Shown: one piece after another, positions 11,089 through 45,796 of the stretch
How positions within the stretch are numbered: position 1 is the stretch's first letter
How the letters are laid out: every line of letters starts with the position of its first letter
DNA from: Lachnospiraceae bacterium
GTDB taxonomy: Bacteria; Bacillota; Clostridia; Lachnospirales; Lachnospiraceae
Assembly (NCBI GenBank): GCA_021203465.1
Contig: JAJQBC010000005.1
Location: 7,866 to 71,865, forward strand
DNA: 64,000 nucleotides
Direction of reading: 5' to 3'
Made by a program: the position numbers and the translations under genes
The notes under the pieces: generated by a model
Seen by the model: only the letters and a program-made list of their open reading frames with translations
Told to the model about the DNA's origin: nothing
The model's database searches: none

Positions 11089-11339
11089 AATATTGTCTCT
11101 CCTGCTACTCATGGCACTATTCTACTATCAAAAGGCCATGGATGCAAGCAAAAATCCGCCCGCCGACACATGCGGCGGACGGATTCGTCAAGGGGAGGAT
11201 AAGTATTTCATTTCTCTTCGGTACAGTTACAGTATACCCACCGACGGGAAAACTATACAGAAAGATGAAAATTTTATGTTGCGAAATTTTTCTCAAAAAT
11301 ACTTGTTATGTAGTTTTTGTTACTATATAATGTTAGCAA

Positions 11340-11422
11340 CAGTTCAGAACGGCGTCGAAATGACGCGTAAGCGGCATATAGCCTTCGAAGAAGGCGGTCT
11401 CAAGGCCTGCTGTTCTGAACAG
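11340..11422 (+). repeat. copy 1 of an approximately 65-nt structured intergenic repeat (R element)
   Basis: Core ATGACGCGTAAGCGGCATATAGCCTTCGAAGAAGGCGGTCTCAAGGCCTGCTGTTCTGAACAG. Near-identical cores occur at 26475-26554 (opposite strand) and 45705-45765. It contains the GCCTTC-GAA-GAAGGC hairpin. Confidence 0.8.
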
Positions 11423-11447
11423 TTTACACAGAAAGAAGGCATACAGT

Positions 11448-12394: not shown

Positions 12395-13672
12395 CTATCT
12401 GCGGATGATATCGCTCCTGCCAGGCCCGTTGGAGACCATCGTGATCGGGAATCCGATCTGTTTTTCTATAAATTCTATGTAGTTCCGGCAGTTCTCCGGC
12501 AGATCCTCATATTTTTTAATCCCGCGAATCTCGCATTTCCAGCCGGGCAGCGTCTCATAGACCGGCTTCGCCTTCTCGAGCAGCGGCGTCGTCGGGAACT
12601 CCGTCGTCACCTTCCCGTCGATCTCGTAACCGACGCAGACCTTGAGCTCGTCGAGATAGCCGAGCACGTCCAACACCGTGAACGCCACATCCGTCGTGCC
12701 CTGCAGGCGGCAGCCATAACGGGAGGCCACGCAGTCAAACCAACCTACCCTGCGGGGGCGGCCCGTCGTCGCACCGTACTCACCGCCGTCGCCTCCGCGG
12801 CGCCGCAGCTCCTCCGCCTCGTCACCGAACAATTCGCTGACGAAGGCTCCCGCACCGACCGCACTGGAATAGGCCTTACAGACCGTGATCACCTGCTTAA
12901 TCTCATAGGGCGGAATGCCCGCGCCGATCGCGCCGTAGGCCGCCAGCGTGGACGAGGAAGTCACCATCGGGTAGATACCGTGATCCGGATCCTTCAGCGT
13001 GCCGAGCTGACCCTCCAGCAGAATATTTTTCCCATCTTTTATCGCCTGCCAGAGATACGAGGAGGCATCGCACACATAGGGAGCCACCATCTCCTTATAC
13101 TCCATCAGTTCCTGATAGATGTCGTCCTCCTTCAGCGTCGGCGCATGGTACAGATACTCGAGCAGCACATTTTTGCGCGCCAGCACGCTGCGGATGCGCT
13201 CTCGCAACGCCTCCTCCTCGAGCTGAAGGTCGCTCACCTGAAAGCCGATCTTCGCGTATTTATCCGAGTAGAAGGGCGCAATCCCGGACTTCGTGGAACC
13301 GAAGGATCTCCCTGCGAGCCGCTCCTCCTCGAGTTTGTCAAATAAAATATGGTAGGATATGACCATCTGCGCGCGATCCGAGATGAGAAGCCTCGGCTTC
13401 GGGACGCCGCGCTCGATGATGCCCTGCAGCTCCTGGAACAGCACCGGCACGTTCAGCGCCACGCCGTTGCCGATGATGCTCGTCGTGTGGCCGTAGAAGA
13501 TCCCGGACGGCAGGGTGTGCAGCGCAAATTTCCCGTAATCGTTGACAATCGTGTGTCCCGCGTTCGCGCCGCCCTGAAAGCGGACAATGATATCGGACTC
13601 TTGGCCGAGCATATCGGTGATCTTGCCCTTGCCCTCGTCGCCCCAGTTTGCGCCTACGATTGCTCTTACCAT
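12395..13672 (-). CDS. purA: adenylosuccinate synthetase
   Basis: MVRAIVGANWGDEGKGKITD P-loop and GTTGRPRRVGWFD. The ATG at 13672 is preceded by GGAGGAA. The ORF-track start at 13783 is an upstream extension. Confidence 0.95.
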   Translation of the reverse strand: MVRAIVGANWGDEGKGKITDMLGQESDIIVRFQGGANAGHTIVNDYGKFALHTLPSGIFYGHTTSIIGNGVALNVPVLFQELQGIIERGVPKPRLLISDRAQMVISYHILFDKLEEERLAGRSFGSTKSGIAPFYSDKYAKIGFQVSDLQLEEEALRERIRSVLARKNVLLEYLYHAPTLKEDDIYQELMEYKEMVAPYVCDASSYLWQAIKDGKNILLEGQLGTLKDPDHGIYPMVTSSSTLAAYGAIGAGIPPYEIKQVITVCKAYSSAVGAGAFVSELFGDEAEELRRRGGDGGEYGATTGRPRRVGWFDCVASRYGCRLQGTTDVAFTVLDVLGYLDELKVCVGYEIDGKVTTEFPTTPLLEKAKPVYETLPGWKCEIRGIKKYEDLPENCRNYIEFIEKQIGFPITMVSNGPGRSDIIRR

Positions 13673-13727
13673 ATCTTCGTTCCTCCATTTCGCGGCCTGC
13701 TCTTCCCTTTCCCGGCCGCACTCCCTC

Positions 13728-13756
13728 AGTATATTCCAAAATTCCCCTTTAGTAAA
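13728..13756 (-). promoter_or_regulatory. candidate purA promoter
   Basis: Minus strand reads TTTACT, a 17-nt spacer, then TATACT. It sits directly next to the base of hairpin element A. Confidence 0.4.
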
Positions 13757-13766
13757 GCGCTTTTCA

Positions 13767-14261
13767 CGCGGCCACCGCCGCAAAGCACCGGGTTTTGCAA
13801 ACGGGCGGGCAGGAGAGTGGCCTGTATGGCGAGAGCAGTCGCCACCTTCGGGATTTTCGTCATCTGCGGCTGCGAAACCCCGAATTGAGCCTCCGGGTCA
13901 AATGTCTCTCGTCAGACTGTCGAACGATAAGTCCTTTAGATGGACATCGAGGGCGATTTGTTACAGGAACTGTATATGGCCGGAAGCGACCAAAGACGGG
14001 TTCAAAACACTACAGAATTGTTTTGAACCCGTCATTCGAAAGGTCGCGAGGCCGTATGCGTAGTTCCTGTTAAAATCGCCATCTGGGAATCTAAAGGACT
14101 TATCGTGTGGCAGGCTGTGCTGAGACTTGCCCCGGAGGCTCATTGGTTTCTCGCTCGCAGATGATGAAAATCCATCGAAGCCGCCTCCAATGCTCTCGCC
14201 ATACAGGCCACTCCCCTACTCGCCCGATTCACAGGCTTAGCGCTTTGCGGCGATGGCCGCG
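13767..14261 (+). repeat. long rod-like imperfect palindrome, copy A (about 247-nt arms)
   Basis: Arm-to-arm complementarity can be traced by hand from the apex (GACGGGTTCAAAAC, an 11-nt loop, GTTTTGAACCCGTC at about 13996-14033) out to CGCGGCCACCGCC / GGCGATGGCCGCG. The central portion is about 90 percent identical to 44100-44470. Confidence 0.85.
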
Positions 14262-14266
14262 GGGCT

Positions 14267-17200
14267 TCACCCGAAATCGAAGATGGAAAGCTGGTCGGAT
14301 TCGGGTAGGCCCTCCAGCAGACCAAGGTCGCCCATCAGGTCGATGACGGTCTTGCTGAGCTTCGTGCGGCCTCGCAGGTCGTCGCGCGAGAGGAAGGGAC
14401 CCGCGGCGCGGCCCTCAACGAAGGCGTCCGCAGCCTTGTCGCCGAGGCCATCGATCGTGGAGAGCGAGGGCATCAGCTTCCCGTCGATGATACGGAATTT
14501 GCGCGCGTCGGCCTCGTAAATATCCAGCTTGTGGAACTCGTAGCCCCGCGCGTACATCTCGAGCACGCTCATCATGTCTTTGAGCGTATCCTTCTCCTTC
14601 TGCGTGAGATCGTCCTCCCGGCTCTTGTAGTCCTGAATATAGCGCTCCAGCCGCTCGCGCCCCTGGCACATGAGCTCGTAATTGAAGGCGCTGGCGCGGA
14701 TACTGAAGTAGGCCGCGTAATATTCGAGCGGGAAATTAATCTTGCACCAGGCGATGCGCCAGGCCATCATGACATAGGCCGCCGCGTGCGCCTTGGGGAA
14801 CATGTATTTGATCTTCTCGCAGGACCAGATATACCAGTCTGGCACGCCGTGCGCGATCATCTCTTCCTTCCACTCCGGCCAGGTGTCGCACTGCCCCTTC
14901 GCAACCTTGCCCTTACGGACCGCCTCCATGATCTTGAAGGACATCTCGCTGTCGAGCCCCTTGCTGATCAGATAGGTCATGATATCGTCACGCGTACAGA
15001 TCGCCGTGGAAATCGTCGCCTTGCCCTCCTGAATCAGGGTCTGCGCGTTGCCGAGCCACACGTCGGTGCCGTGGGCGAGTCCCGCGATGCGCACCAGGTC
15101 GGAGAAATGCGTCGGATGCGTGTCCACAAGCATCTGCATCGCGAACTCCGTGCCGAACTCCGGGATGCCAAGAGAACCGAGCGGCGTACCGCCAATGTCC
15201 TCCGGCCGGATGCCGAGCGCCTCCGTGCTCTGGAAAAGCGACATCACCTGCGGATCGTCGAGCGGGATCTCGCGGGCGTTGACGCCGGTTAAATCCTCCA
15301 GCATGCGGATCATCGTCGGATCATCGTGTCCGAGAATATCGAGCTTTAAGAGGTTGTGGTCGATCGAATGGTAGTCAAAGTGCGTCGTGATGATGTCGGT
15401 CGTCATGTCGTTCGCCGGATGCTGCACGGGTGTGAAGGAGTAAATGCTCTCGCCGAGCGGCAGCACGATGATGCCGCCCGGGTGCTGTCCGGTCGTCCGG
15501 CGCACGCCGACGCAGCCGTCGACAATGCGCTCGATCTCGCAGCGCCGCTTCGGTACGCCGCGCTCCTCGTAGTAGTTTTTGACATAACCGAAAGCGGTCT
15601 TATCCGCCAGCGTGCCGATCGTCCCGGCGCGGAAGGTCTGGCCGGTGCCGAAGATGACCTCCGTGTACTTGTGCGCGCGCGACTGATAATCGCCGGAGAA
15701 ATTCAGGTCGATATCGGGCTCCTTGTTGCCCTTGAAGCCGAGGAAGGTCTCGAAGGGAATGTCGAAGCCCTCTTTTTTCAGCTTTTCGCCGCAGCGCGGG
15801 CAGTTTTTGTCCGGCATGTCGCAGCCGGCCATGCCGGCGTATTTCTTCACCTCATCCGACTCGAAATCGCTGTAATGGCACTTTGGACAGATGTAGTGCG
15901 GACTTAAGGGGTTGACCTCGGTGATGCCCGCCATCGTCGCCACCAGCGAGGAGCCGACCGAGCCGCGCGAGCCGACGAGGTAGCCGTCCTCGTTTGACTT
16001 CCAGACGAGCTTCTGCGCGATGATGTACATGACAGCGAAGCCATTTCCGATGATGGAGCGCAGCTCACGCTCCAGGCGCTCGGTCACGATTTCCGGAAGC
16101 TCCTCGCCATAGATTTCATGTGCTTTCTTATAACAGATCTCACGCAGTGTCTTGTCGGAATCCGCGATGACCGGCGGACACTTGTCGGGGCGCACCGGCG
16201 AGAGGTGCTCGCACATCTCCGAGATCCGGTTTGTATTGGTAATGACGACTTCTTCCGCCTTTTCCCTGCCGAGGAATTCAAACTCCGCGAGCATCTCCTC
16301 CGTCGTGCGCAGATAGAGCGGCGCCTGCTGGTCCGCATCCGAAAAGCCCTTTCCGGCCATGATGATCCGGCGGTAGACCTCGTCCTCCGGGTCGATGAAG
16401 TGCACGTCACAGGTGGCGGCCACCGGCTTGTGAAACTCCTCGCCGAGCCGGACAATCGTGCGCACATTCTCGCGCAGATCCTCCTCGGAACTCACCGGGT
16501 TCTTCGAGTCGCGCAGCATGAAAGCGTTGTTCCCCAGCGGCTGAATCTCGAGATAGTCGTAGAATTCCACGATACGCGCGATCTCCTGCCGCGGCGCGCC
16601 TCGCAGGATCGCCTGATAGAGTTCTCCCGCCTCGCAGGCGGAGCCAACGATCAGGCCCTCGCGATATTTCTGAAGCTCACTCTTCGGAATGCGCGACCGC
16701 CTCGCAAAGTAATCGATATGCGACAGCGAGACCAGCCGGTAGAGATTCACACGACCGATATCGTTCTTCGCAAGAATAATCACATGGTAAGTCGGCAGCT
16801 TTTTGATCGCAGCCGCGTCCGCGCGCCCCAGCGCGTTCACATCATTCAGCGTGCGGGCGTCCCGCTCACGGAACATCTGCAGGAACTTCAGGAAGATTTC
16901 CGCCGTGCAGGCTGCGTCGTCGACCGCGCGATGGTGATGGTCGAGCGAAATATTCAACGCCTTCGCGACCGTATCCAGTTTGAATTTGTTTAATTTCGGC
17001 AACAGCACACGCGCCATCGCGACGGTGTCGCCGACTGTGAAATCCGTCGGGATATTCATGCGGCGGCAGTTCTCCTCGATAAAGCCCACATCGAACGAAG
17101 CGTTGTGCGCGATCAACACAGAGCCTTCGCAGAAGGCCAGAAAATTCGGCAAGATTTCCTCAATAGGCGGCGCGTCCGCCACCATCTCGTCACCGATGCC

Positions 17201-22955: not shown

Positions 22956-23115
22956 CTCTGACACTTTCCTCTCTGTTTGTATTGGTTCCAACTGAACATA
23001 CCCAGTATAACACGTTCTTTCAAGAACGAAAACAGTTTTTTCTGCCCGCTTGACCTCTTCCGGGATTTCCGCTATCATAAGCCATGTAGCCAGATTAATT
23101 TCAGAGGTATTCATT

Positions 23116-23376
23116 ATGCAATACATAATCACCGCCTATTTCATTATCGTCAATATCATTGGCTTCGCCCTGATGGGCATAGACAAGCGAAAGGCCAGAA
23201 AACAGCAGTGGCGCATCCCGGAGAAAACGCTGTTTCTAGCGGCGATCATCGGCGGCTCTGTCGGAACGCTGCTTGGCATGTACGTATTTCACCACAAGAC
23301 GAGGCACTGGTACTTCGTCGTCGGCATGCCACTGATCCTGATTCTGCAGATTCTGCTCTGTATGAAATTTTCATAA
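23116..23376 (+). CDS. DUF1294-like small membrane protein
   Basis: IIGFALMGIDKRKARKQQWRIPEKTLFLAAIIGGSVGTLLGMYVFHHKTRH. The start is ATG 23116. Confidence 0.7.
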   Translation: MQYIITAYFIIVNIIGFALMGIDKRKARKQQWRIPEKTLFLAAIIGGSVGTLLGMYVFHHKTRHWYFVVGMPLILILQILLCMKFS

Positions 23377-26474: not shown

Positions 26475-26554
26475 TGTAACTATTCAGAACAGCAGGCCTT
26501 GAGACCGCCTTCTTCGAAGGCTATGTGCCGCTTACGCGTCATATGACTGTTACA
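26475..26554 (-). repeat. copy 2 of the R element
   Basis: The reverse complement reads ATGACGCGTAAGCGGCACATAGCCTTCGAAGAAGGCGGTCTCAAGGCCTGCTGTTCTGAATAG, flanked by TGTAAC/GTTACA. It lies between ecfT and truA. Confidence 0.8.
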
Positions 26555-32742: not shown

Positions 32743-35700
32743 TCATTCGCTGTTGCTGAGCCACAACCCCTCAACCGTATGCGCCTCCTCAGTGGACACC
32801 CAGGTGTCGACCAGCGCCAGATTGTCCTGCGCATGGCTGATCTGCCCGTCCTTATCCAGCAGGCTGCTGTCCAGAATTCTATATACAGAAATCGTCGCTC
32901 CGGACACTTCCTCCTCGCCGGTCAGATCCATTTTGGTCAATGTCACCGCGGTCGGCTCATTCTCATGCTCCGCATAGACCGGAATATACAGGGTATATTC
33001 ATCCTCATAGGCAAAACTGACCGGATAAACTGTATCATCCATCAGATAGCCGTCCGGCGGCGTCAGCTCCTGAATGTAGTAATTCCCGGTGTTCAGCGCC
33101 GTATTGCCGTCGATCGAGCGCTCCACCGTATCGCCGCTGACTGAAGCCTGATAGATCAGCTCCGCCTCCGCTGCGTCTTCATCCTGATATTTGCTCATCA
33201 GCGCGATGTTCACCGCAAAATTCGCAAATCCGTCCGCGTCGGTCGTCGCACAGGCGAGCAGTGCGCCCGCTTCCACCAGCAGCTCCCCATCCACATTGTA
33301 GATATCGTCAGCCGTGTAGAGACCGAATCTTGCGCCGAGGAGCAACGCGCCGCTGCCCGCGTCGGCCTTATAAACGCCGACTCCCAGTTTCCGCTGCTCT
33401 TCCTCCGACGTGCTCCAGGGCTTTATACGCTGGTTGTAAAAATTTAAAAAGTCCTCCTGTGCGTCGAACACGACTTCCGTGGTCTGGTCAACGTAGGTCA
33501 ATTCCACCGTCTGCGTCTGCGCACTCAGAAGAAAACCATAGGGCGCAGCGATCTCACGAACCTCATAGCTCCCAAGCGGCAGATACACGGACACTGTCCC
33601 GAGCGTTCCGTCGTTCTCCACACGGACAATGGGCTCCGCTGTCGCGTAGTGGAGCGTATATTCCAGTGTCAGTTCATAGACCTGATAGCTCGTCTGGATC
33701 CCGGCCACCGTGACTGTGACGCTCGCGCCATCGGCAGCGAGCTCCACCGTATTCCCGCCGGTCGTGCGGAAAATCTGGGAGGCCGCGTCCCACAATAACG
33801 TCCATGTCTCGTTTTTGACCGTCAGTGTTCCGCCCTGCAGGCTCAGCTCCGCCTGTACATAGCGATTATCGCTGATCTCCTCGCAGCGGGTTTCCGTCAC
33901 GCTCCAGCCGGATGAAGTCCTCACCACCAGCGCGCCGGACGAGGTCTCATAGAGGCCGCTCTCCATCGTGACGATCGGATTTCCGGTCTCATCATACAGA
34001 ATAAAGCTCCCGTCTCCCTGCTCCACGATCGCGGCGCTTCTGTAACTCATCACACGGGTATAACCGAGATCCACCGCAGCATCCGTCTGCGCTCCGCCAG
34101 ACACACCGGGCTGCACCTCCGTCGTGTGGCTGATACGGTATCCGGATTCGGTGCATTCTACAAGATCCCCCTGCGCCCAGCCGTCCACATGGCTCTCCGT
34201 CACCTGATAAACATCAGTACAGGGCTCCAGTGTGATCCCGCTTCCGTCCGCCAGCGTCAGAACCGTGTCCTCCCCATTCTGCGTCAGATACGCGCCACTG
34301 TAAAGCTGCTGCGATGTCCAGGTGAGCCGATAGCCCTCCGCGGTCTCCGTCAGGATGCCTGCCTCCGAAGAGGCAAGCCCACTTTCCGCATCAAGCCGGG
34401 TCACATAGTCCGTCACGACCGGCTCCTCTGAGGCTCCCTCGCGATAATAGTGGCGCAGAATCTGCTGCGTCTGTTCCTTATAATAGGTATTTGGATACAC
34501 CGTCTCATCCGTGTAGGCCGGAATCCCATACAAAGCCTGATCAAGCTCGCTCATTCGCCCGGCGATCCAGTAATTCGCAACACCGCCGCTGCTTGAAAAC
34601 TGCTCCCCGCTGTATTCTTTCGAGCTGGTGAACGACGTACCGGAACCGTAATAATACGTGTAGTCATAGCTTCCGCCGCCCGTGTTCTCCGCGGTACGGT
34701 AATTGGGCTCAAAAGAGACATACTCCCCCTCCTCACCGGTCGTCACTGTTGCGACCACGTCGCCCTCGCGGAACCACCAGCCGCTGCCGTCCTGCGTCGG
34801 GATATCCTCTGCCGCGGTGATCTCATAGACCGCGTCCGCCAACGGGCGCTCCTCATAGACGAAGTCTGATTCGTCCTCATCGTAGTCGGTCAGCACCTCG
34901 CCCGTCTTCAGAATACTCAGCTTTCCAAGCACCTCGTCGTCATACATCGTCTCGCCGATATAGAGATAGTCCAGATTTCCCGAGGAGACGATGCCGGATG
35001 CTTGATAGCGTCGATCTGTCGTCACCTCAAAGTCCACCGTTCCATACCCGGAATCCAGATACAGATTATAGTAGCCATCCGGCGCGTTCAGCTCTTCCAG
35101 ACGGTAAGTACCGGCCTCCAGCGAGGCCACCGCATTCAGGCGTCCGCTCTCGTCGGTCGAAAACACGCGCTGCGCAATCATCGTGAGTTCCCCGTCCGGT
35201 CCGGAAAGGTATTTGGATACATACTGATTGTTCTGATAATCCCAGATACGAAAAGAGATGCCGGACTGCGTGACCGTCTGCCCCGACTGCGCGTCGCGCT
35301 TGACGAGAATGAGCGAGGCCACGATGCTCGCATCGGTCTGCGCCACAGATTTCGCCCGATTCTCGCTCGTCGAAGAATCAGAAACCGTCACAAACAGCGG
35401 ATCCACGGTAAACACATCCTCAGGCGTCGTCGTCTCGACCACCAGATAAGCGCCCCACGGTAGCTCCGGCGACCTTAGGTTTCCGTAGTGATTCGTGAAG
35501 ATCTCCGACAGACGGTACTCATTTTCTACGCCGGTGGCCACCCAGCCCTCTGAAATGCCGTTCACGCCGTACCACTCGCAGGGCGAACCGCTGTTCAGAC
35601 GATTAGCCTTATATGTATAGTCCGCGTTGATCGCGGCTACCATGGTTTCATCGTCCTCGTACATCCGCGCGACCGCCTGCTCCTCCCCGGAAAAATCCCA

Positions 35701-38700
35701 TTTTCCGCTCTCATTGGAATAGTAGAGATTGCGGTAGGCCGCCAGAATATCTTCCATATAATAGTAGCCGTGCCCCGCGATATAGACCAGACGGTTGACC
35801 TCTGAGAGTTCATAGTCGCTTCCGTATTTTCCCTTAAAAGGCTGGTTTTCCGCGATATAAGATTTCGTATACTGGTAACCGACGAAGCTATCCGACTCGT
35901 CCATAAGAGCGACGAGCGCGTTCTCCTTCACCAGCATGTTTCCCTCGTCCTCGCTCCAGGCCGCTGCGATCGTACCATCCTGTATAAGGCTCAGTTCCGA
36001 GAGGAGATAGACGGTGAAACCCGCACCCTCGAGCGCCGTGCCGGCTGTATTTCCGGAGGACGCGCTCTCCCCTCCGGTCGTCAACTTGCGGATCTGGAAA
36101 CCGGCCTTGATGACCTGCTGCTCCGACACGCCGTCCGTCTCATTCCTGCGGTAAATCTGCTCCGCCTCGACGAGCGTGCCCTCCTGCATCTCGTCCTGAT
36201 AGAGGAAGGAATAATGGTATTTCTGCGGATTTCCATCCCCATCCGTCGCCGCCAGATAGCCCGGCGCGAAGGAGAGCCAGTGTATTTCCGCACTCTCCTC
36301 GTCATTATTGTCCGTCGAGAAGAGGACGACTGAGCTGCGAATCTCCTCGACCAGATCATATTCTCCGAGGTACAGCCCGTTCATCTCGAATTCTCCGTCC
36401 GCGATCACAGCGCTCGCGACCTTCGCGCCCGCCTGCAGCGTCACGTCCTGCAGCGTCCAGGTGTCCGCATAGCCGTCCCCGTCCGTATCTATAAAGACCT
36501 GCTGTTCCTCGAGCACCGCAAACCAGCCGTTGTGCTTCGCGCCGCCGTACATGCCGTCCGGATGCCGGATGCCGCCGTAGGAAACGTTCTTCGCCTCGAC
36601 GCTCACATATCCGGCTTTGCTGTCCGTATAATCAAAATACAGCTTTCCCCCGCTGAGGTATGCATGCGGATAATCCTGATACGCATTCGTCCCCAAATCC
36701 GTAAAAGCAGAACCGTCGTCATCTCCATCATAAATAATGCGGTATCCGCCCGCGGCAATCGGCTGCGCCCAGAAAAGCTTTCCGTCCAGCGTGCCCTCCA
36801 GATACTGCACCTCAAAGCTGCTGTCCTCCGACACATAGAGCGAGTAGATGGCTCCGTCGAGCCCCGCGTCCCCGTGATCCGTTCCGGCCGCATAAGCCTC
36901 CGCGAGGTCGCCGTCCACATAGCGCTCCGCCTCCGCGTCCTGCTTTGAAAATTTCAGATAGCCATAGCCGCGTTCATCGATGAAAGAGTATTCCACCGCA
37001 TCGGTCACGCTCGCCTGTGTATGGTCGGTCCGCGCCGCCGCTTCCTGCGAGGCACCGTCACAGACGACCTCGCCCACCTGCAGGAAATCCCGGTCATGGA
37101 AGCCGCTCCTCACATTCAGCACAGCGGCCTCATCCCCCGCATAGGAATGATAATTGATCGCGATGTCCGTGTAGGTTCCATAATACGTGATGCGCGACGC
37201 GGAAGAGAGATTGTCGTCATAGCTGTCCGCATTGACCGTTGTCCCCACAAAGTGCAGCTGCACATCTGCGCTCTTCACCAGAGCGAAATACGTATCTGAC
37301 TTCTGCGAATCCCGGCTGATCAAAAGCCCGCTCTCCCCGCTCAGATACTGATTCCAATATCGATCCCAGAACACGTTCAGCACATCCTGCACGGCACTGC
37401 CCAGAGCGTAGCGCTGCAGTGCGATCATCTCCTGAAGGCCGAACTGTTCATAGGTAAGCGCGTCATAATCATCCAGAGTCCCCACATCGTTCGCATAGTA
37501 GGCGTTTTCATAGCCCTCATGACCGTCCGTCAGCATATAGGTGGCGTATTGGTTCGTATCCTCACAGAGATTCAGGTAATGCACGAGTTTCTCCGTGCTG
37601 GCCTGTTCACCTGTCCCGTCCCGGTCGCTGTAATTTCCCAGATAACCGTTTCGCTCCCCGTCCGCAGGAGCGCTCTTCTCCACGATACAGAAACGCCCCA
37701 GATTGGCCTGTGTGTAGTAGAGCGTTCCATAGCTGTCATAGCCGTAGCTCACGCCTGTATCCGTATCCGTCGCGGAGCTGAAATTTGTCCCACAGTACTG
37801 ATCCGTCACGGAAATCCGATGCACCGTGTACATACCGATCACCGTGTCCGGCCAGCCCATCTCCTTCGCGATATCCGCGGTTACACGCACAATCTCATAA
37901 TTTTTCTGTCCCCAGGTCGTGTAATCGTCCGGATCGGCCGCCAGACCGTAATCCCGCTCCGCGACCGTCAACTGCCCGGTTGAGACCGAGAAGGCGCTGT
38001 CGTAACGGTAGGTGCCATCCGCGAGAATCGTTCCCGTATAATAGTAAAGCGTCACGGAACCATCCGCGTCCACAGCGGCAGCCACAAAATACAGGCCGTT
38101 TCCCTCACCCGTGTAGGACACCCCATCATCGGAATACAGAACGATCCCTGTATCCTCCATGCTCTCATAGACAAAAACCGTGCCTCCGGAGCTGTACTCG
38201 ATGTGCGCGCCGTCATCCTGCGCGGTGTAGACACTCTCCGTCCCTTCCGTGTCAGTATATACGTACTGCCAGAGACCGCTCGCCGCATCGACTTCGTAAG
38301 AGATCGTCCCTCCGTCTGCGGTCGTATAGAGCATCGCACCGGCTCCCAATATCTCTGTATCACTGATCGCAATCTGGTTTTCCATCTCGGCCAGAAGCTG
38401 ATACACGCCTTTTCCCGTCTCCACCAGCTCTGTTGTTTCATAATACAGAGTATCCGCCAAGCTGAGATCCTGACTGCTGTCAATCGTGATCTCCAGCCGC
38501 GCCAGATAATCTCCGGCCGCCGTGGGCGTATAGGACAACGCATACGCGTAGGGCGTCGCCAGATTATCCACCAGCTTCGCCACATCCAAGTTCCAGCTTT
38601 CGTACTCGTGCCCGCTCTCATCCGTCACGGTCAGCTCAGCGGCCGCAATCAGCTCCGTCTGCAGCGCCGACCCCTTCTCCCGGATCAGACCGCTCAGCAG

Positions 38701-41109
38701 CATCGACGGATAGAGCGTCTTTTTCTGCGCAGTCGCCTGAGCCGTCCACTGATAATATTCATAAATTTCAAATTCTGTGTCATAAAGAATCTGCGCGCCG
38801 CTCTCCAGATCAGTCTTATTGATAAAAATCTGATTGTACCACGGCTCGTCCGTGACATTTGTGTTCGATGCCCCGGAATCGCTGTCATTCCTTCCGCCGA
38901 CTGTCATCGTCCCGCCGTTGGAGACGATTTCCGAGTAAGTTCCTATTGTCGTAGCGCCATTCACATCCCTGCGATATCCGGCCAGAGGCAGCGTGACCTC
39001 CGCAAGCGTCCGTCCATTTGAATCATTCGCGCTTCCGCGCGTATACTGGTCGAGCTCCGTGACCGTATAGCGGTAAGTGCGCGACATATAGGAATCATAC
39101 TGTTCCTCGAGCGTGCCCTGCGCGCTCTCCTTCGCCTGCGTCCATGCATCCTGCTGCTCTTCGTAAATCTCCTCAAGCTCTTCCGCCGTGAGTTCGACGG
39201 AATCTCCCATGTAGGACACAGCCAGCACGTCGCCGACGCTCAGGGTCGCCGCTGCCGCGAGCGCCTCCGCCCACAGCGATTCATAGGTATCCTGATCGGT
39301 CTCCTCCCCGGGTTCCTTCATGTACTGGCTGTAGGATTCCCGGAAGCTGTGTTCATGCACAAAGCTCGTGTACGCATAACCGTTCGCGTCCGTCATGAGC
39401 TCGGTCTGATGGTCGCCGCCCGACGGCTCGACATCCTCATCCATATAGGGCACGGAAATTCCATAGTTGCCGGCCGAATCGGTATCTTCGCTCTCCACCA
39501 CCTGAAAACGCACGCCCTCCAGAAGCTCATTGGTGATAATGCTCTCCTTCGTGATCTCCACACAGTACTGCGCGGAGGCCTTCTTTTCCAGATCATAATT
39601 TTCAATATAGGGAATGAGCAGCTCACCCGCCACCGCGGATACCGGGGATGTCCCGATGCTCCAGGTAATAATCCACTGGGCGTTCGTCTGCGCCGGGCAG
39701 ACCCAGAAGCAAAGCTCCGCATGGCTGCCCGGATAATAATCGATGCCGCTCACATTGGTGAAGTCGTCGAAATCCAGAGTACCGTCCATATAATGATTGA
39801 TCGCATTGGAAAATGTACTCAGCGCGCCGTAGACGTAGCTCGCGTCGCCGCCGTAAATTTTTCCGGCCGCCTCGCTGATTCCGCCGTCGTTCCAGGCCAC
39901 GTCGATATCGAAATAGACGCTGTCGTCGGGCATATTGTTGATAATATACCAGATCGCGAGCTGCATCGCCGCGTAGTCGTGGGACTGCTGCTGCGTCGTC
40001 TTCAGGTAACAGTTCACCACACACTTGATCAGATTGTACTGATAACTGCTGAGCGCTGTCCCGTTCGGCGCAATGATCGATGAATAATCCACCTGCTCGT
40101 AATGCCAGCCTGTCCTGTACGAGCCGCCATACAGGGCGCAGAATGCCGTGTGGCGCGTTCCACTGTTGTCTTTTGCATAGAGCTTCACGACCTTATCGTG
40201 AGCCCTACTGCTTCCCAGTGAGGAAATTACACCAAGCGCGCTCCCGCCCAGAGAACCGATCCCGGCGGATGTCAGAGACGACGGAACGTCATTCTCGCCG
40301 GACAGCAGCAAGACCCCGTAGAGATCCACGTACTCGCTCCGCCCCAGCGCCTCATAGACCCAGTCCGGGAGTTCCCGTCCACTCAGGTATCTGCCGGTAA
40401 TATAAGAAAAATTATATTCCGCCTCCGCCATGCTGCGCAGAGTTTCTATCGTGAATCCCGAGAAAATCGTCCCGCGGAAGAAATGCGCCAGATCCATCCC
40501 TTCTTCCGCCAACTCGATGATCTCCTCCACATCGTCGGTGTAAATTTCCGGGATTTCATTTCCATCCTCATCTACGGCGTAGACAAAATTCCCGCTGCAG
40601 GCCGGATCTCCGTAGCCATAATTGTCGTATGGAGTGATTTCGTCCTGCTCTGCCTGTTCGACTGCTTCCTCCGTGGCGACAACGATTTCCACGGCTTCAC
40701 TCCCGTCGTCGTCCGTCTCCTCTTCCTCCGTAATCTCTGTCTCGTCACCGCCTTCATCGGAAATCCCCATGAGCTGCTCTTCCGCATCATTTTCCTCTGC
40801 CGAAGAGGCCTCGCCATCGGAGTCCTCCTGAATCCGTCCGTCCGTTTCCTGATCTGCCCTGTCCGGATTCTCCGTATCTGACTCTTCCGTTTCCGGCTCC
40901 TGCGCATCGAAATCCGACTCCTCTTCGCCTGATTCCCCGTCGCTCTGTCCCTCCGTGTTCTGACTCTCCGTGCACGGTTCTTCTGTGCTCTCTCCCAACG
41001 ACGCCGTGTAGGAATCATCCGCGCGCGATATCATACCCGCTGACGGAGCGGAGCAAAACAGAACCGTGGCCAGAAGCAGGCACAGGCAGCGCTCTGCTGT
41101 TTTTTTCAT
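32743..41109 (-). CDS. giant surface adhesin (2788 aa from MKKTAERC) with a thioester-like domain and many CnaB/SpaA-type repeats
   Basis: Signal peptide MKKTAERCLCLLLATVLFCSAPSAG, a roughly 130-aa poly-acidic region, FCALYGG plus AMQLAIWYI (thioester-domain Cys and Gln motifs), and repeated GxYxLxExxAPxGY-type motifs (YRLEELNAPDGY, YEVREIAAPYGF, YYIQELTPPDGY). It ends at a TGA in the middle of a domain. Confidence 0.85.
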   Translation of the reverse strand: MKKTAERCLCLLLATVLFCSAPSAGMISRADDSYTASLGESTEEPCTESQNTEGQSDGESGEEESDFDAQEPETEESDTENPDRADQETDGRIQEDSDGEASSAEENDAEEQLMGISDEGGDETEITEEEETDDDGSEAVEIVVATEEAVEQAEQDEITPYDNYGYGDPACSGNFVYAVDEDGNEIPEIYTDDVEEIIELAEEGMDLAHFFRGTIFSGFTIETLRSMAEAEYNFSYITGRYLSGRELPDWVYEALGRSEYVDLYGVLLLSGENDVPSSLTSAGIGSLGGSALGVISSLGSSRAHDKVVKLYAKDNSGTRHTAFCALYGGSYRTGWHYEQVDYSSIIAPNGTALSSYQYNLIKCVVNCYLKTTQQQSHDYAAMQLAIWYIINNMPDDSVYFDIDVAWNDGGISEAAGKIYGGDASYVYGALSTFSNAINHYMDGTLDFDDFTNVSGIDYYPGSHAELCFWVCPAQTNAQWIITWSIGTSPVSAVAGELLIPYIENYDLEKKASAQYCVEITKESIITNELLEGVRFQVVESEDTDSAGNYGISVPYMDEDVEPSGGDHQTELMTDANGYAYTSFVHEHSFRESYSQYMKEPGEETDQDTYESLWAEALAAAATLSVGDVLAVSYMGDSVELTAEELEEIYEEQQDAWTQAKESAQGTLEEQYDSYMSRTYRYTVTELDQYTRGSANDSNGRTLAEVTLPLAGYRRDVNGATTIGTYSEIVSNGGTMTVGGRNDSDSGASNTNVTDEPWYNQIFINKTDLESGAQILYDTEFEIYEYYQWTAQATAQKKTLYPSMLLSGLIREKGSALQTELIAAAELTVTDESGHEYESWNLDVAKLVDNLATPYAYALSYTPTAAGDYLARLEITIDSSQDLSLADTLYYETTELVETGKGVYQLLAEMENQIAISDTEILGAGAMLYTTADGGTISYEVDAASGLWQYVYTDTEGTESVYTAQDDGAHIEYSSGGTVFVYESMEDTGIVLYSDDGVSYTGEGNGLYFVAAAVDADGSVTLYYYTGTILADGTYRYDSAFSVSTGQLTVAERDYGLAADPDDYTTWGQKNYEIVRVTADIAKEMGWPDTVIGMYTVHRISVTDQYCGTNFSSATDTDTGVSYGYDSYGTLYYTQANLGRFCIVEKSAPADGERNGYLGNYSDRDGTGEQASTEKLVHYLNLCEDTNQYATYMLTDGHEGYENAYYANDVGTLDDYDALTYEQFGLQEMIALQRYALGSAVQDVLNVFWDRYWNQYLSGESGLLISRDSQKSDTYFALVKSADVQLHFVGTTVNADSYDDNLSSASRITYYGTYTDIAINYHSYAGDEAAVLNVRSGFHDRDFLQVGEVVCDGASQEAAARTDHTQASVTDAVEYSFIDERGYGYLKFSKQDAEAERYVDGDLAEAYAAGTDHGDAGLDGAIYSLYVSEDSSFEVQYLEGTLDGKLFWAQPIAAGGYRIIYDGDDDGSAFTDLGTNAYQDYPHAYLSGGKLYFDYTDSKAGYVSVEAKNVSYGGIRHPDGMYGGAKHNGWFAVLEEQQVFIDTDGDGYADTWTLQDVTLQAGAKVASAVIADGEFEMNGLYLGEYDLVEEIRSSVVLFSTDNNDEESAEIHWLSFAPGYLAATDGDGNPQKYHYSFLYQDEMQEGTLVEAEQIYRRNETDGVSEQQVIKAGFQIRKLTTGGESASSGNTAGTALEGAGFTVYLLSELSLIQDGTIAAAWSEDEGNMLVKENALVALMDESDSFVGYQYTKSYIAENQPFKGKYGSDYELSEVNRLVYIAGHGYYYMEDILAAYRNLYYSNESGKWDFSGEEQAVARMYEDDETMVAAINADYTYKANRLNSGSPCEWYGVNGISEGWVATGVENEYRLSEIFTNHYGNLRSPELPWGAYLVVETTTPEDVFTVDPLFVTVSDSSTSENRAKSVAQTDASIVASLILVKRDAQSGQTVTQSGISFRIWDYQNNQYVSKYLSGPDGELTMIAQRVFSTDESGRLNAVASLEAGTYRLEELNAPDGYYNLYLDSGYGTVDFEVTTDRRYQASGIVSSGNLDYLYIGETMYDDEVLGKLSILKTGEVLTDYDEDESDFVYEERPLADAVYEITAAEDIPTQDGSGWWFREGDVVATVTTGEEGEYVSFEPNYRTAENTGGGSYDYTYYYGSGTSFTSSKEYSGEQFSSSGGVANYWIAGRMSELDQALYGIPAYTDETVYPNTYYKEQTQQILRHYYREGASEEPVVTDYVTRLDAESGLASSEAGILTETAEGYRLTWTSQQLYSGAYLTQNGEDTVLTLADGSGITLEPCTDVYQVTESHVDGWAQGDLVECTESGYRISHTTEVQPGVSGGAQTDAAVDLGYTRVMSYRSAAIVEQGDGSFILYDETGNPIVTMESGLYETSSGALVVRTSSGWSVTETRCEEISDNRYVQAELSLQGGTLTVKNETWTLLWDAASQIFRTTGGNTVELAADGASVTVTVAGIQTSYQVYELTLEYTLHYATAEPIVRVENDGTLGTVSVYLPLGSYEVREIAAPYGFLLSAQTQTVELTYVDQTTEVVFDAQEDFLNFYNQRIKPWSTSEEEQRKLGVGVYKADAGSGALLLGARFGLYTADDIYNVDGELLVEAGALLACATTDADGFANFAVNIALMSKYQDEDAAEAELIYQASVSGDTVERSIDGNTALNTGNYYIQELTPPDGYLMDDTVYPVSFAYEDEYTLYIPVYAEHENEPTAVTLTKMDLTGEEEVSGATISVYRILDSSLLDKDGQISHAQDNLALVDTWVSTEEAHTVEGLWLSNSE

Positions 41110-41214
41110 TTTTAATGCCCTTTCCAGCACAAAAAGTGTGCAAACTACCTTCACCCGCAGCACCTGCCTCTGCGGGCGATCTCTATGCATTTTCATTTGG
41201 GGAATTCACCGATG

Positions 41215-41435
41215 AAACATCGGCGTTCGATTTTTTTGGACGTTTTTATTCTAATACGGCAAGAAGATTTTGTCAAATGAAATATGAAAAGCCCTTAACT
41301 CGCGAATACGCAAAGAAAAGATGGGTTCAAAACACTTTTTGTATTGTTTTGAACCCATCTTTGGTCAGTCCCTGCCGTATGCAGTTCCTGTAACAAATCG
41401 CCCTCGACATCCATCTGTCGACTTTCTTTCTGACT
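41215..41435 (-). repeat. degenerate, inverted copy C of the long palindrome family
   Basis: The minus strand reads GATGGATGTCGAGGGCGATTTGTTACAGGAACTGCATACGGCAGGGACTGACCAAAGATGGGTTCAAAACAATACAAAAAGTGTTTTGAACCCATC, matching the left arm and apex of copies A and B. The other arm is only patchily recognisable (GCCGTAT..., AAAATCG...). Confidence 0.7.
41248..41276 (-). promoter_or_regulatory. candidate promoter of the adhesin operon, embedded in the decayed arm of copy C
   Basis: Minus strand reads TTGACA, a 17-nt spacer, then TAGAAT. The 5' UTR of about 130 nt contains the CCCGCAG...CTGCGGG hairpin. Confidence 0.45.
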
Positions 41436-43012: not shown

Positions 43013-43906
43013 TTACTGAGCAATGATGCTGTTCTCGATGCCGTAAGTCGTCGCGATCTCGACCATGCTACCGTCCGCGTAGCTCTCCGCGAAGAACTCG
43101 TTCAGCATCTCAACCAGATCGGAACCCTGACGGAATCCAACGCCGTACTCCTCGTCGACCAGCACGACACCCGTCGTGAGATCTTCATAGCTGGTGCCCT
43201 CGCCCACCATGGCTTCCGCCATCAGGAGGTCGATGATCGCCGCATCCGAGGTGCCCGCCGCAACCTCCATCAGCGCGTTCGCCTGATTACTGACAGAAGT
43301 ATAGGAAAGACCATTGTCTTCCGCAGCCGCCTCGCCGGCGCTGCCGGATTCTACTGCAAAGCTGAGATCCGCAAGGCTCTCCACATCCGCGTAGTCCTCC
43401 GCGACATCCGCTGCGAGAACAACGACCTGGGAATTGCTGCTGTAAGCGTTCGAACAATCCATCGCGCTCATGACCTCATCGGTCAGCGTCATGCCGTTCC
43501 ACACACAGTCGATCGTCTTGCCATCCAGCTCCAGAATCTTGTTGTCCCAGTCGATCTCGACGAACTCAACCGCTACGCCGAGGCTCTCCGCAAAAGCGGT
43601 CGCCATGTCGGCATCAAAGCCGATCCAGTTGCCATCCTCATCCTTGTAGTCCATCGGCTCGAAATCCGTGATACCGACAACCAGAGTACCCTTCTCCTGC
43701 ACATAGGCAAGATCACTGTCCGCATCAGCCGCCTCTTCAGCCTCCTCAGCCTCTTCCACCTCTTCAGTCTCCTCTTCGACTTCGGCCTCTTCCTCGTCCG
43801 TCGTCTCCTCGGTTTCCGTGGTGGTCTCCGTGGAACTTGAGCTGCCGCATCCGGCCATGCTGAGTACCATGACGCCCGTAAGCATCAACGCAAGTAACTT
43901 TTTCAT
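43013..43906 (-). CDS. amino-acid ABC transporter substrate-binding lipoprotein (family 3)
   Basis: Start at MKKLLALMLTGVMVLSMAGCGSS (lipobox), a roughly 45-aa Thr/Glu-rich linker, then the SBP fold (LVVGITDFEPMDYKD...). The ORF-track start at 44221 runs into repeat copy B. Confidence 0.9.
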   Translation of the reverse strand: MKKLLALMLTGVMVLSMAGCGSSSSTETTTETEETTDEEEAEVEEETEEVEEAEEAEEAADADSDLAYVQEKGTLVVGITDFEPMDYKDEDGNWIGFDADMATAFAESLGVAVEFVEIDWDNKILELDGKTIDCVWNGMTLTDEVMSAMDCSNAYSSNSQVVVLAADVAEDYADVESLADLSFAVESGSAGEAAAEDNGLSYTSVSNQANALMEVAAGTSDAAIIDLLMAEAMVGEGTSYEDLTTGVVLVDEEYGVGFRQGSDLVEMLNEFFAESYADGSMVEIATTYGIENSIIAQ

Positions 43907-44002: not shown

Positions 44003-44020
44003 GAAAAACTGTAAGCACTC

Positions 44021-44550
44021 ACGGCCCGGTCCCCCGCATCCGGCACCCGCCGCCGCAACAGGCAATTTGCTTCGAGCGCGCAGGCAGCACGCCCTCCTGT
44101 GGGGAGAAGTAGTCGCCGCCTTCGGAATTTTCGTCATCTGCGGCTGCGAAACCCTGAACTGAGCCTCCGGGCCAAATGTCGCCCGGCAGGCTGTCGCCCG
44201 ATAAGTCCTTTTGATGGACATCGAGGGCGATTTGTTACAAGAACTGCATACGGCTGGAAGCGACCAAAGACGGGTTCAAAACACTACAGAATTGTTTTGA
44301 ACCCGTCATTCGTAAGGTCGCGAAGCCGTATGCATAGTTCTTGTTAAAATCGCCATCTGGGAATTAAAAGGACTTATCAGGTGGCAGACTGTGCCACGAC
44401 TTGTCCCGGAGGCTCATCTGTTTCTCGCTCGCAGATGATGAAAATTCATCGAAGCCGTCTCCCATACTTCTCCCCACAGGAGGGTGTGCCGCCTGCGCGC
44501 TCATTCCAAACGTTGCAGCGGCGGGTGTCGGATGCGGGGAAACGGGCTGT
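44021..44550 (+). repeat. long rod-like imperfect palindrome, copy B (about 265-nt arms)
   Basis: It has the same apex and inner arms as copy A. The outer arms have different sequence but are again self-complementary: CCTCCTGTGGGGAGAAGTA / TACTTCTCCCCACAGGAGG, GAGCGCGCAGGC / GCCTGCGCGCTC, CCCCGCATCCG / CGGATGCGGGG. Confidence 0.85.
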
Positions 44551-44563
44551 GAAATGCGGCGCA

Positions 44564-45571
44564 TTACAGCTTGTCGATCGGCGTATTCAGGATGCGCTCC
44601 GTCTCCTCGGCCTTTTCCTTCTCCCGGCGGCGCTTGCTGCGGATGTTCAGGAAGACGAGCACTGCGACGACGATGATCACGACAGCGGCCAGAATATAGG
44701 GCAGCCGGGACGCGAGCGTCGGCGTCGTGCTCATGATACGGTCTGCGGTCTTCGAGAACACTTGGGAGAAATACTCTTCATCGCTCAGATCGCTGTAATA
44801 ATAGGCGTCCACATAGTCGAGCAGGATCTCGCAGGCCTCCGAATCCATGACCGTCTGCGCGTTCGTTCCGACGATATAGTAAATGCTGTAATCGCTCGAA
44901 CTCCACTCGACAAAGACGAGCAGTACCCCAGCCTCGTTATCGCCTGCCAGTTCCGTATACTTATCGTCACAATAAGCTTCGATCTCGTCGTTCGTCGCGG
45001 AACGGCTACCGTTCACGTTGTCAGTGATCACGAGATAGGGCTGCACGCCGGTCTCCTTATAGAAGGTCTCCATACCGGAGAGCGTCGTGCTCTTATTGAG
45101 AATCCAGTCCAGCTCGTCGTCGATGCAGTCGCTGTCAAACGAAGCATAGGGTTGGATTGCCTCGCGCTCTACCGTACTCGTCGTAATATCCGAGGTCGAC
45201 GAGGAAGCGAAGCCTCTGGTCGCCGAACGCATCATGGAAAAAAGCACCATAACCACAAGGATACACACTATCAGCATGGAAGTACCGCAGCCGGCTCCGC
45301 GTCTTCCGTAGCCGCCATAGCCCCAGCCGCCGAACCAGGATCTCCGCGGTGGCCTCGGTGGGCGCGGACCGCCCGTACCTCCCATGCCCGGTCCAAAACC
45401 GCCGCCCGGCGCACCGTAACTGCCCCCGCCACGGTTCCGGCTGCCGGAACCCATCGAGCCGCCACGGCTCGAACCGCTCGAGCTCCTGCCGCCAAAGCTG
45501 CGGCCTCCTCCTGAACTGTGTCCTCCGCTGCTGCGGCCTCCGCCGCCGCCTCCTGCACCGCCTCTGCCCAT
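44564..45571 (-). CDS. membrane protein with a Gly/Arg-rich N-terminal tail and a TPM-like domain between two TM segments
   Basis: The first roughly 95 aa are almost only G/S/R/P. TM1 follows (MLIVCILVVMVLFSMM), then an approximately 190-aa domain resembling TPM (METFYKETGVQPYLVITDNV...AGVLLVFVEW...IYYIVG), then TM2 and a basic tail. Confidence 0.55.
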   Translation of the reverse strand: MGRGGAGGGGGGRSSGGHSSGGGRSFGGRSSSGSSRGGSMGSGSRNRGGGSYGAPGGGFGPGMGGTGGPRPPRPPRRSWFGGWGYGGYGRRGAGCGTSMLIVCILVVMVLFSMMRSATRGFASSSTSDITTSTVEREAIQPYASFDSDCIDDELDWILNKSTTLSGMETFYKETGVQPYLVITDNVNGSRSATNDEIEAYCDDKYTELAGDNEAGVLLVFVEWSSSDYSIYYIVGTNAQTVMDSEACEILLDYVDAYYYSDLSDEEYFSQVFSKTADRIMSTTPTLASRLPYILAAVVIIVVAVLVFLNIRSKRRREKEKAEETERILNTPIDKL

Positions 45572-45704
45572 ATTTTTCAGCCTCCTCTTTTTTCTTTAAC
45601 AGTTCCGAGCAGTAATGAAATAAAAAACAGACTGTGCAGGTTTACCTGCTAAAGGCTGTATTTTTATTTCGGGATGGGCGGAACGCCCATCAAGCCTCAG
45701 ACAT

Positions 45705-45765
45705 ATGACGCGCAAGCGGCATATAGCCTTCGAAGAAGGCGGTCTGTGGCCTGCTGCTCTAATAG
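45705..45765 (+). repeat. copy 3 of the R element
   Basis: ATGACGCGCAAGCGGCATATAGCCTTCGAAGAAGGCGGTCTGTGGCCTGCTGCTCTAATAG, between the pspA stop and the TPM-like gene. Confidence 0.8.
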
Positions 45766-45796
45766 TTGCTTTGCACCAATTCAGAACAAGTCTGAT

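Follow-up and report, generated by a model that had tools for sequence, protein, structure and literature searches.

A long hairpin between polC and purA

The window analyzed here is a 64,000-nt stretch of contig JAJQBC010000005.1 from a Lachnospiraceae bacterium (assembly GCA_021203465.1); it served as the reference for comparisons with loci fetched from other assemblies and collections, which were numbered L001 to L019. The polC-purA spacer of the window contains a full foldback element of 498 bp (13768 to 14265), from here on referred to as W1; neither W1 nor the parts of it described below are assigned to a strand. The polC stop codon lies at 14267 to 14269, and a purA promoter-like site, TTTACT-17-TATACT, extends from 13756 to 13728 on the minus strand, 11 nt outside W1, and is kept in genomes without the element. 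This arrangement agrees with a preliminary description of the same DNA, which had placed a palindrome between the polC stop codon and the purA promoter. The W1 boundaries follow from the hairpin fold and were refined by comparison with empty spacers (L011 and L012) and with spacers that retain remnants of the element (L005, L009, L017, and L019).

An inverted-repeat finder returned six nested arm pairs across 13767 to 14261, i.e., 13767-13837/14191-14261 (71 nt, 80%), 13851-13879/14145-14173, 13886-13906/14122-14142, 13904-13941/14089-14126, 13958-13971/14062-14075, and 13992-14009/14019-14036 (94%). When 13760 to 14268 was folded, a single unbranched hairpin was obtained. As RNA, the plus strand had a minimum free energy of −318.2 kcal/mol (z = −21.8), compared with −175.7 ± 6.6 kcal/mol for shuffled sequences, and the minus strand had a minimum free energy of −313.5 kcal/mol (z = −20.8); as DNA, the plus strand reached −180.5 kcal/mol (z = −18.1). 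The rod-like imperfect palindrome that had been read by hand is therefore borne out far above chance, with one rod-like hairpin on each strand and z close to −21 for either RNA strand. Its finer details hold as well. The apex sequences GACGGGTTCAAAAC and GTTTTGAACCCGTC are found at 13995 to 14008 and 14020 to 14033 with the 11-nt stretch 14009 to 14019 between them, and GGCCTGTATGGCGAGAGC accounts for 18 of 18 pairs between 13819-13836 and 14192-14209. Based on the fold and on motif searches, the apex hairpin (13995 to 14033) has a stem of 14 to 15 bp and a loop of 9 to 11 nt. An alignment of seven copies of the element, described below, divides the rod into a conserved core of ~367 nt (13831 to 14197) with conserved bulges and internal loops, a left outer arm (13768 to 13830), and a right outer arm (14198 to 14265); the two outer arms pair with each other and differ among copies.

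As had been noted, ERIC, REP, BOX, and Correia repeats are all far shorter than W1. W1 also matched no Rfam family: the covariance models of release 15 gave no match in 13000 to 15000 even at E ≤ 10, and at gathering scores only a tRNA was found in the whole window. The absence of an Rfam match, the extraordinarily stable fold, and a plus strand that folds slightly better in most copies (by ~0 to 14 kcal/mol) would all suit a unique, undescribed gene for a structured noncoding RNA, transcribed from the plus strand and antisense to polC and purA.

W1 is one of several dispersed copies

The apex motif is present at two more places in the window. The first, W2 (44014 to 44563), is a second full element of 550 bp that was identified by fold and alignment and has the same orientation as W1. 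It is located between the stop codon of a minus-strand gene (44564 to 45571) and the promoter of a minus-strand SBP gene (43013 to 43906), folds with −370.8 kcal/mol (z = −23.3), and is ~89 to 90% identical to W1 over its central ~370 nt. The second, W3 (41317 to 41417), is in reverse orientation (minus strand) and truncated, with only the apex hairpin and one arm. W3 lies just upstream of the promoter region of a gene for a giant SpaA-domain protein.

When species-representative genomes were scanned for the apex pattern, copies were found only in three Lachnospiraceae metagenome-assembled genomes (MAGs) (L001, L002, L003, and L005), and additional copies were identified in L011 (GCA_001941045.1) and L014 (GCA_965298735.1). 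The copy in L002 is the ortholog of W2, while those in L001, L003, L005, L011, and L014 are at other loci; the element is thus dispersed over three places in the window and over differing loci in five related assemblies. The preliminary description had noted no further copy; W2, W3, and the copies in L001, L002, L003, L005, L011, and L014 show that the palindrome is not singular, and for the same reason, a unique RNA gene is not what is found. Within the element-bearing clade, PurA identity is 96 to 98%, and the nearest named relatives (Hominiventricola and allies) are at ~87 to 88%; PurA of the window itself has no entry of its own.

Searches beyond this clade were negative. The phage and plasmid collections gave no match to the element using blastn in distant mode, three pattern scans of viral contigs returned no copies, and scanning Joint Genome Institute metagenomes with the apex pattern gave no copies, only unrelated short hairpins (L006 to L008). 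L004, a match in the genome scan, is unrelated to the element, and L013 and L018, in which purA has an N-terminal extension, represent another genomic context without the element. In the literature, we found no specific description of a long foldback family or a family of miniature inverted-repeat transposable elements (MITEs) in Lachnospiraceae or Clostridia. Short-read assemblies appear to be broken or confused by these palindromes, and copy numbers in MAGs are therefore probably underestimates. The copy in the L001 MAG, for instance, has 10 N in a row (1587 to 1596) in place of its left arm. The full copy in L011 is at 631 to 1174 of that locus; its window counterpart (23043 to 23361) is ~320 bp instead and contains a small open reading frame (ORF) of ~95 aa that starts near 23060 on the plus strand, i.e., the content of this spacer differs between relatives.

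All copies with defined flanks are intergenic. A stop codon immediately precedes W1, W2, L003, and L014, and only 6 to 11 nt separate W1 and W2 from a downstream −35 hexamer. Such positions would suit a hairpin that is useful to the host as RNA, an explanation that is compatible with a mobile origin. Read-through from polC would give an imperfect duplex of ~250 bp, which might serve as an RNase III processing site, protect the 3′ end, or insulate the upstream message from the downstream promoter. We found no intrinsic terminator between polC and W1, and read-through is therefore likely. Moreover, ERIC, bcr1, and Correia-type repeats have been reported to act in this way (PMC3184786). Weighing these points against those given in the following sections, we consider this explanation unlikely.

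Both insertion sites occur in full, remnant, and empty states

We fetched orthologous polC-purA spacers via close PurA homologues and read them in the purA sense. In L011 and L012, the site is empty: ...GGGTGA is followed directly by AAATACTTTACT..., the promoter comes straight after the stop codon, and a single GTGAA (equivalent to TTCAC) is present within ...GGGTGAAAATAC.... In the window, ...GGGTGAA is followed by the element, which begins with GCCCCGCGGCC and ends with GGTGGCCGC, and then by GTGAAAAGCGCTTTACT. The 498 bp of W1 accordingly lie between two copies of GTGAA, which read TTCAC on the plus strand at 13763 to 13767 and at 14266 to 14270, where the right copy overlaps the polC stop codon; this 5-bp direct repeat is a candidate target-site duplication. 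Four relatives carry remnants at this site, i.e., 9 nt in L005 (GATGAA-GCCGC-GTGAA), 66 nt, mostly from one outer arm, in L009, 52 nt in L017, and ~24 nt in L019. The W2 site is full in the window and in L002, is reduced to a remnant of 25 to 30 nt in L016, and is empty in L015, where AAGCTGTAG directly precedes TTTTTCTTGACA. Because both sites show full, remnant, and empty states, we conclude that the elements were inserted and later repeatedly lost. According to the spacer comparison, W1 inserted one base past the polC stop codon, leaving 11 nt between it and the purA −35 box.

The copies are prone to deletion, with outcomes that include complete loss, remnants of 9 to 66 nt, and one symmetric loss of the center. 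That the W1 site is empty or degraded in six related genomes argues against a gene for a structured noncoding RNA at this position. Similarly, loss of the element is seen in several relatives at the W1 as well as the W2 site, and the flanking genes are still in place there, which speaks against a hairpin that serves the host as RNA.

A 5-bp target-site duplication is probable for the family but not proven, because the repeat is clean at W1, changed in L009, L017, and L019, and degenerate at W2. Specifically, at the W1 site, four of five positions match in L005 (TTCAC/TTCAT), and the repeats in L009, L017, and L019 have diverged by one change per copy (GTGAT/GCGAA). The preliminary description had stated that paired ends of a known insertion sequence (IS) or MITE with target-site duplications would refute a new functional element. 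The insertion, as judged from the empty sites, and the TTCAC repeat at W1 nearly match that alternative, but the family is not a known one.

Two further observations concern the polC-purA region in relatives. In L019 (9690 to 12080; GCA_965328655.1), the segment from purA to DUF1836 has the opposite orientation to that in every other genome, with one breakpoint ~6 nt from the ~24-nt remnant at the polC end and the other in the DUF1836/UDP-glucose dehydrogenase spacer, a spacer that holds a full element copy in L005. Recombination between two copies as the origin of this inversion is unproven, as the first breakpoint falls outside the remnant. In L017 (4777 to 9442; MAG C.6_6), polC is called as two ORFs of 1,314 aa and 237 aa, a split that points to a frameshift or to misassembly close to the 3′ end of the gene.

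No strand preference and no coding capacity

Several mismatches between the arms had been read as G opposite T, which would be A:C clashes in minus-strand RNA, and had been taken as a hint of a plus-strand transcript. In the arm-to-arm alignment of the seven copies, we counted 60 G:T and 48 A:C mismatches, and among the pair columns of the consensus structure, 23 contain G:T and 21 contain A:C, a symmetric outcome despite the use of the plus strand for structure prediction. An excess of G:T over A:C is absent, and a plus-strand G:U signature was rejected with G:T and A:C equally common. W1 and W2 point one way with respect to the upstream gene, and L003 and L014 point the other way. We found no sigma-70-like promoter inside the element, and its single terminator-like site scored no better than shuffled sequence. 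The hint of a plus-strand transcript thus loses the mismatch excess on which it rested, with copies in both orientations and with neither a promoter nor a terminator of its own evident. Taken together with the further copies and the empty sites, these results largely refute the idea of a unique structured RNA gene, to which we assign only a very small probability. They also weigh against a host-useful RNA hairpin, inasmuch as G:U-compatible mismatches are not preferred over A:C on either strand. The lack of strand bias among the mismatches and the occurrence of both orientations fit a process that acts at the DNA level or is symmetric with respect to strand.

An extended −10-like motif, TGTTAAAAT, is present on the plus strand of the right arm (14068 to 14076) and is invariant at the matching position in all copies. 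The left-arm complement of this position reads TGTAACAAAT, and this asymmetry is conserved. The motif may be a promoter that faces outward; no −35 element was found for it.

Each of the six reading frames is interrupted in some copies, and no ORF is conserved. The longest internal frame, a plus-strand frame of 82 to 92 aa, was rejected as a conserved small ORF because it is broken in L002, L003, and L005; used as a protein query, it gave a single match among called ORFs, P0121, which led to the copy in L014. To survey neighboring genes, Pfam scans covered the large ORFs of the window not already assigned by synteny. These ORFs encode sugar-nucleotide enzymes, glycosyltransferases, ABC and ECF transporters, pilus and sortase proteins, the giant SpaA-domain protein, and PspA, among others. 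In agreement with the earlier claim that no transposase, reverse transcriptase, recombinase, or nuclease gene is nearby, we found no transposase, integrase, reverse transcriptase, or nuclease domain in the large ORFs of the window. We also found no RAYT or Y1 HUH gene in the window, and neither the window nor the phage, plasmid, and viral-contig collections contained an autonomous IS or transposon whose ends match. The element encodes nothing, and any mobilization must therefore come in trans from an enzyme encoded outside the window.

The two arms change together

Free loss of arm complementarity among homologues, together with the lack of a transcript or processing site, would, according to the preliminary description, have refuted a new functional element. 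Using the seven copies and 156 consensus pairs, we compared two-sided changes with two types of control, i.e., 500 column shuffles and alignments in which the 3′ partner was slid by 1 to 3 columns. Two-sided changes were present in 23 of the 156 pairs, compared with 10.9 ± 2.2 in the shuffles, none of which reached 23, and 1 to 8 in the slid controls. Across the seven copies, 95.7% of the cells were paired. Together with the excess of double changes, this indicates that complementarity is not freely lost.

Individual comparisons gave the same picture. Between W2 and its ortholog L002, both of which have stayed at this site since their genomes diverged, 159 pairs are unchanged, 17 have one-sided changes, and 5 have compensatory double changes, for which a rough back-of-envelope expectation is ~0.4; another 16 pairs are missing symmetrically from both arms, and a hypervariable patch of ~20 nt has been swapped on both arms in complementary form. 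In L014 (10146 to 10379), a symmetric loss of 138 nt around the apex has created a new apex, GATAAGTCCTTTCGATGTCCATCGAAAGGACTTATC, and the perfect rod is kept. The apex stem itself has compensatory variants in L011 (GGGGTC.../...GACCCC) and W3 (GATGGG.../...CCCATC). The aligned copies clearly support that the arms do not decay independently and that substitutions as well as indels are complementary on both. A covariation excess of this kind is also what a hairpin maintained as RNA would be expected to leave, given that selection on RNA would keep the core and the pairing.

A conserved core is flanked by variable outer arms

In the alignment of the seven copies, the core is 86 to 93% identical in every comparison of full-length copies, orthologous or not, and its bulges and internal loops are the same in each copy. 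The outer arms are only 27 to 60% identical between copies, with near-perfect complementarity inside each copy. For comparison, 4-fold degenerate sites in the two genes flanking W2 are 69 to 73% identical between the window and L002. With these sites as a yardstick, the outer arms drift approximately neutrally, and the core changes severalfold more slowly. Within the core, 46 of 264 paired columns are variable versus 32 of 89 unpaired columns. Both the conservation of the core beyond 4-fold sites and the lower variability of its paired columns are points in favor of a host-useful RNA hairpin.

The outer arms are a different matter. It has been reported that template switching creates and repairs stems and that arm-to-arm templated correction in a DNA quasipalindrome leaves the same covariation signal as selection on structure (PMC8794818). 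Templated arm-to-arm copying fits the outer arms because they combine near-neutral divergence, near-perfect pairing, multibase replacements, and symmetric indels; stepwise compensatory selection fits less well because it is expected to be slower than neutral. The symmetric multibase replacements and indels point to templated correction in the outer arms, which we favor, and outer arms that stay paired yet diverge almost neutrally are correspondingly a point against a hairpin selected as RNA.

Three other accounts of the pattern were rejected. Concerted evolution within the genome would make W1 and W2 more alike, but at 90.4% identity they are no closer than W1 and L002 (93.2%). Copying of the outer arms from local flanks is contradicted by the pristine site in L011 and L012, which has no arm-like sequence, and by outer arms of different copies that can be aligned. 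Snap-back regeneration of an arm at each transposition does not agree with core bulges and mismatches that are common to all copies.

W1 probably belongs to an undescribed MITE-like family

Based on these data, we propose, with a probability of roughly 0.7, that the palindrome is one copy of an undescribed noncoding, nonautonomous, mobile MITE-like foldback family of ~500 to 560 bp, restricted to a small clade of uncultured Lachnospiraceae, rather than a unique structured-RNA gene. The copies are dispersed, occupy orthologous sites that are filled in some genomes and empty in others, have inverted-repeat ends, and lack conserved coding sequence. A noncoding, hairpin-forming, inverted-repeat structure that is dispersed and polymorphic in presence is among the MITE traits listed in a review, according to which MITEs classically fold into long RNA stem-loops (PMC3184786). 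In the mechanism that we envisage, complementarity of the arms would be maintained by quasipalindrome correction (intramolecular template switching as the DNA replicates), by selection on the folded single strand, or by both. The core would be a functional module, either as the part that a mobilizing enzyme recognizes in the folded strand or as a hairpin that acts in neighboring transcripts after read-through, as proposed for ERIC, bcr1, and Correia elements; its conservation may reflect purifying selection on such a function or exchange between copies.

Several observations weigh against this proposal. The W1 duplication is clean in only two of the five genomes that still carry the junctions, the W2 duplication is degenerate (TGTAA versus TACAG or TATAG, i.e., two to three of five positions, with TGTAG at the empty site), and the insertions seen all look old, being shared or present as remnants across species. 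No cognate transposase or autonomous parent was found in the ~300 kb of the clade that was examined. The center is the most conserved part and the termini are the least conserved, which is the reverse of a typical MITE with conserved transposase-binding ends; the ends are complementary in each copy, but, atypically for a MITE, their sequence is poorly kept between copies. An inactive and purely selfish element would not be expected to conserve its core in place; this conservation calls for a function at the level of the host or for ectopic conversion among copies. Finally, the hypervariable patch of W2 is closer to L014 than to its ortholog L002, a likeness that hints at exchange between copies.

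The conserved center and variable ends would be accounted for if the element were a giant relative of REPINs, moved as folded single-stranded DNA by an HUH/Y1 enzyme of the IS200/RAYT type, or a similar one, that reads the core and not the termini. The strong fold of the single-stranded DNA is in line with this possibility, and the TTCAC repeat at W1 might combine a specific target with an element end that happens to match it, instead of being a true duplication. However, IS200/IS605-type elements make no target duplication, and the single TTCAC in the empty site looks as though a real duplication occurred at W1. In REPINs, the hairpin shows compensatory changes, as seen here, and half-elements are defunct remnants, which the half-copy W3 resembles in the manner of a REP singlet (PMC3116915). 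REPINs are also whole-element hairpins in single-stranded DNA or RNA; unlike the element, they are only ~70 to 110 bp, 5 to 7 times shorter, have conserved ends and a variable spacer, are linked to RAYTs, and make no target duplication. We identified no conserved short REP-like motif at the element ends, and the lack of a Y1/HUH gene in the window likewise does not favor such a relationship, which we consider improbable.

We rate as similarly improbable that the ~367-nt core is an undescribed rod-shaped module in its own right, either a viroid-like hairpin that moves without a protein of its own or a long-duplex RNA that the host has domesticated at gene boundaries. The viroid-like form would propagate as a folded single strand, and in either form the variable outer stems would merely extend the core. 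In favor of this reading, the core is conserved well beyond synonymous sites in every copy, its helices are tighter than its loops, conservation is central, and no mobilizing protein is known.

The proposed MITE-like family shares features with several known systems. Like ERIC/IRU, the element is a noncoding, imperfectly palindromic intergenic repeat that occurs in both orientations and is present or absent at orthologous sites; ERICs are thought to act as RNA hairpins once cotranscribed, as considered here for the element. ERICs are ~127 bp versus 500 to 560 bp, have no sequence similarity to the element, and occur in a different host clade, and the conserved center with variable ends further sets the element apart from them. 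The MITE-like bcr1 of the Bacillus cereus group is ~155 bp and has a specific TTTAT-type target; it resembles the element in being from Firmicutes and in its nonconserved genomic distribution, while the element is >3 times longer and forms one unbranched rod. Flanking direct repeats of 5 bp and compensatory changes that preserve the double-stranded structure have been described for bcr1 (PMC3184786). In the eukaryotic Foldback (FB) transposons, nearly the whole element is one long inverted repeat, as here, but their arms consist of tandem subrepeats, and we do not imply a relation. Tn3-derived elements make 5-bp duplications, and the hairpins in transcripts of Correia elements are cut by RNase III. 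The Correia elements of Neisseria, other bacterial MITEs, and the Tn3-derived TIMEs are, like the element, nonautonomous with an inverted-repeat architecture; they have target-site duplications, which are probable for the element, and transcripts that fold into hairpins, as transcripts of the element would (PMC3184786, PMC4133298). They have the short conserved terminal repeats of a known IS or transposon, in contrast to the varying termini of an element with no known parent.

The finding is a modest one, in that the family is new but its kind is familiar and its clade narrow. Its unusual traits are a single rod of 500 to 560 bp, which is ~4 times the length of ERIC, an inverted pattern of conservation, and the lack of a known parent element; if an enzyme that mobilizes the element by reading the core were found, the known range of bacterial nonautonomous elements would be extended. 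For annotation, W1, 44014 to 44563, and 41317 to 41417 should be labeled as repeat or mobile elements and not as candidate RNA genes. Elements of this type at junctions between stop codons and promoters also appear to break MAG assemblies, as at the N gap in the L001 palindrome. The family offers a clean natural case of long quasipalindrome arms that coevolve in place, and the orthologous substitutions and indels, together with the central deletion, are useful for separating templated correction from selection on structure.

Other features of the window

A second, unrelated repeat family of ~80 to 90 nt, whose copies are 94 to 98% identical, is present at 11338 to 11424, 26478 to 26549 (inverted), and 45698 to 45775. 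Its core reads ATGACGCG, then T or C, then AAGCGGCATATAGCCTTCGAAGAAGGCGGTCT. The copy at 11338 to 11424 has 13-bp terminal inverted repeats (AACAGTTCAGAAC/GTTCTGAACAGTT) and forms part of the 5′ leader of DUF1836; at this position, L005 and L011 lack the repeat, and in L009 it is longer. The family gave no Rfam match at the gathering score and is probably another MITE. The window also encodes the giant SpaA-domain surface protein of 2,817 aa (32743 to 41196) and, separately, a pilus cluster (58599 to 63991) that includes a VWA tip pilin, a backbone pilin, and sortases.

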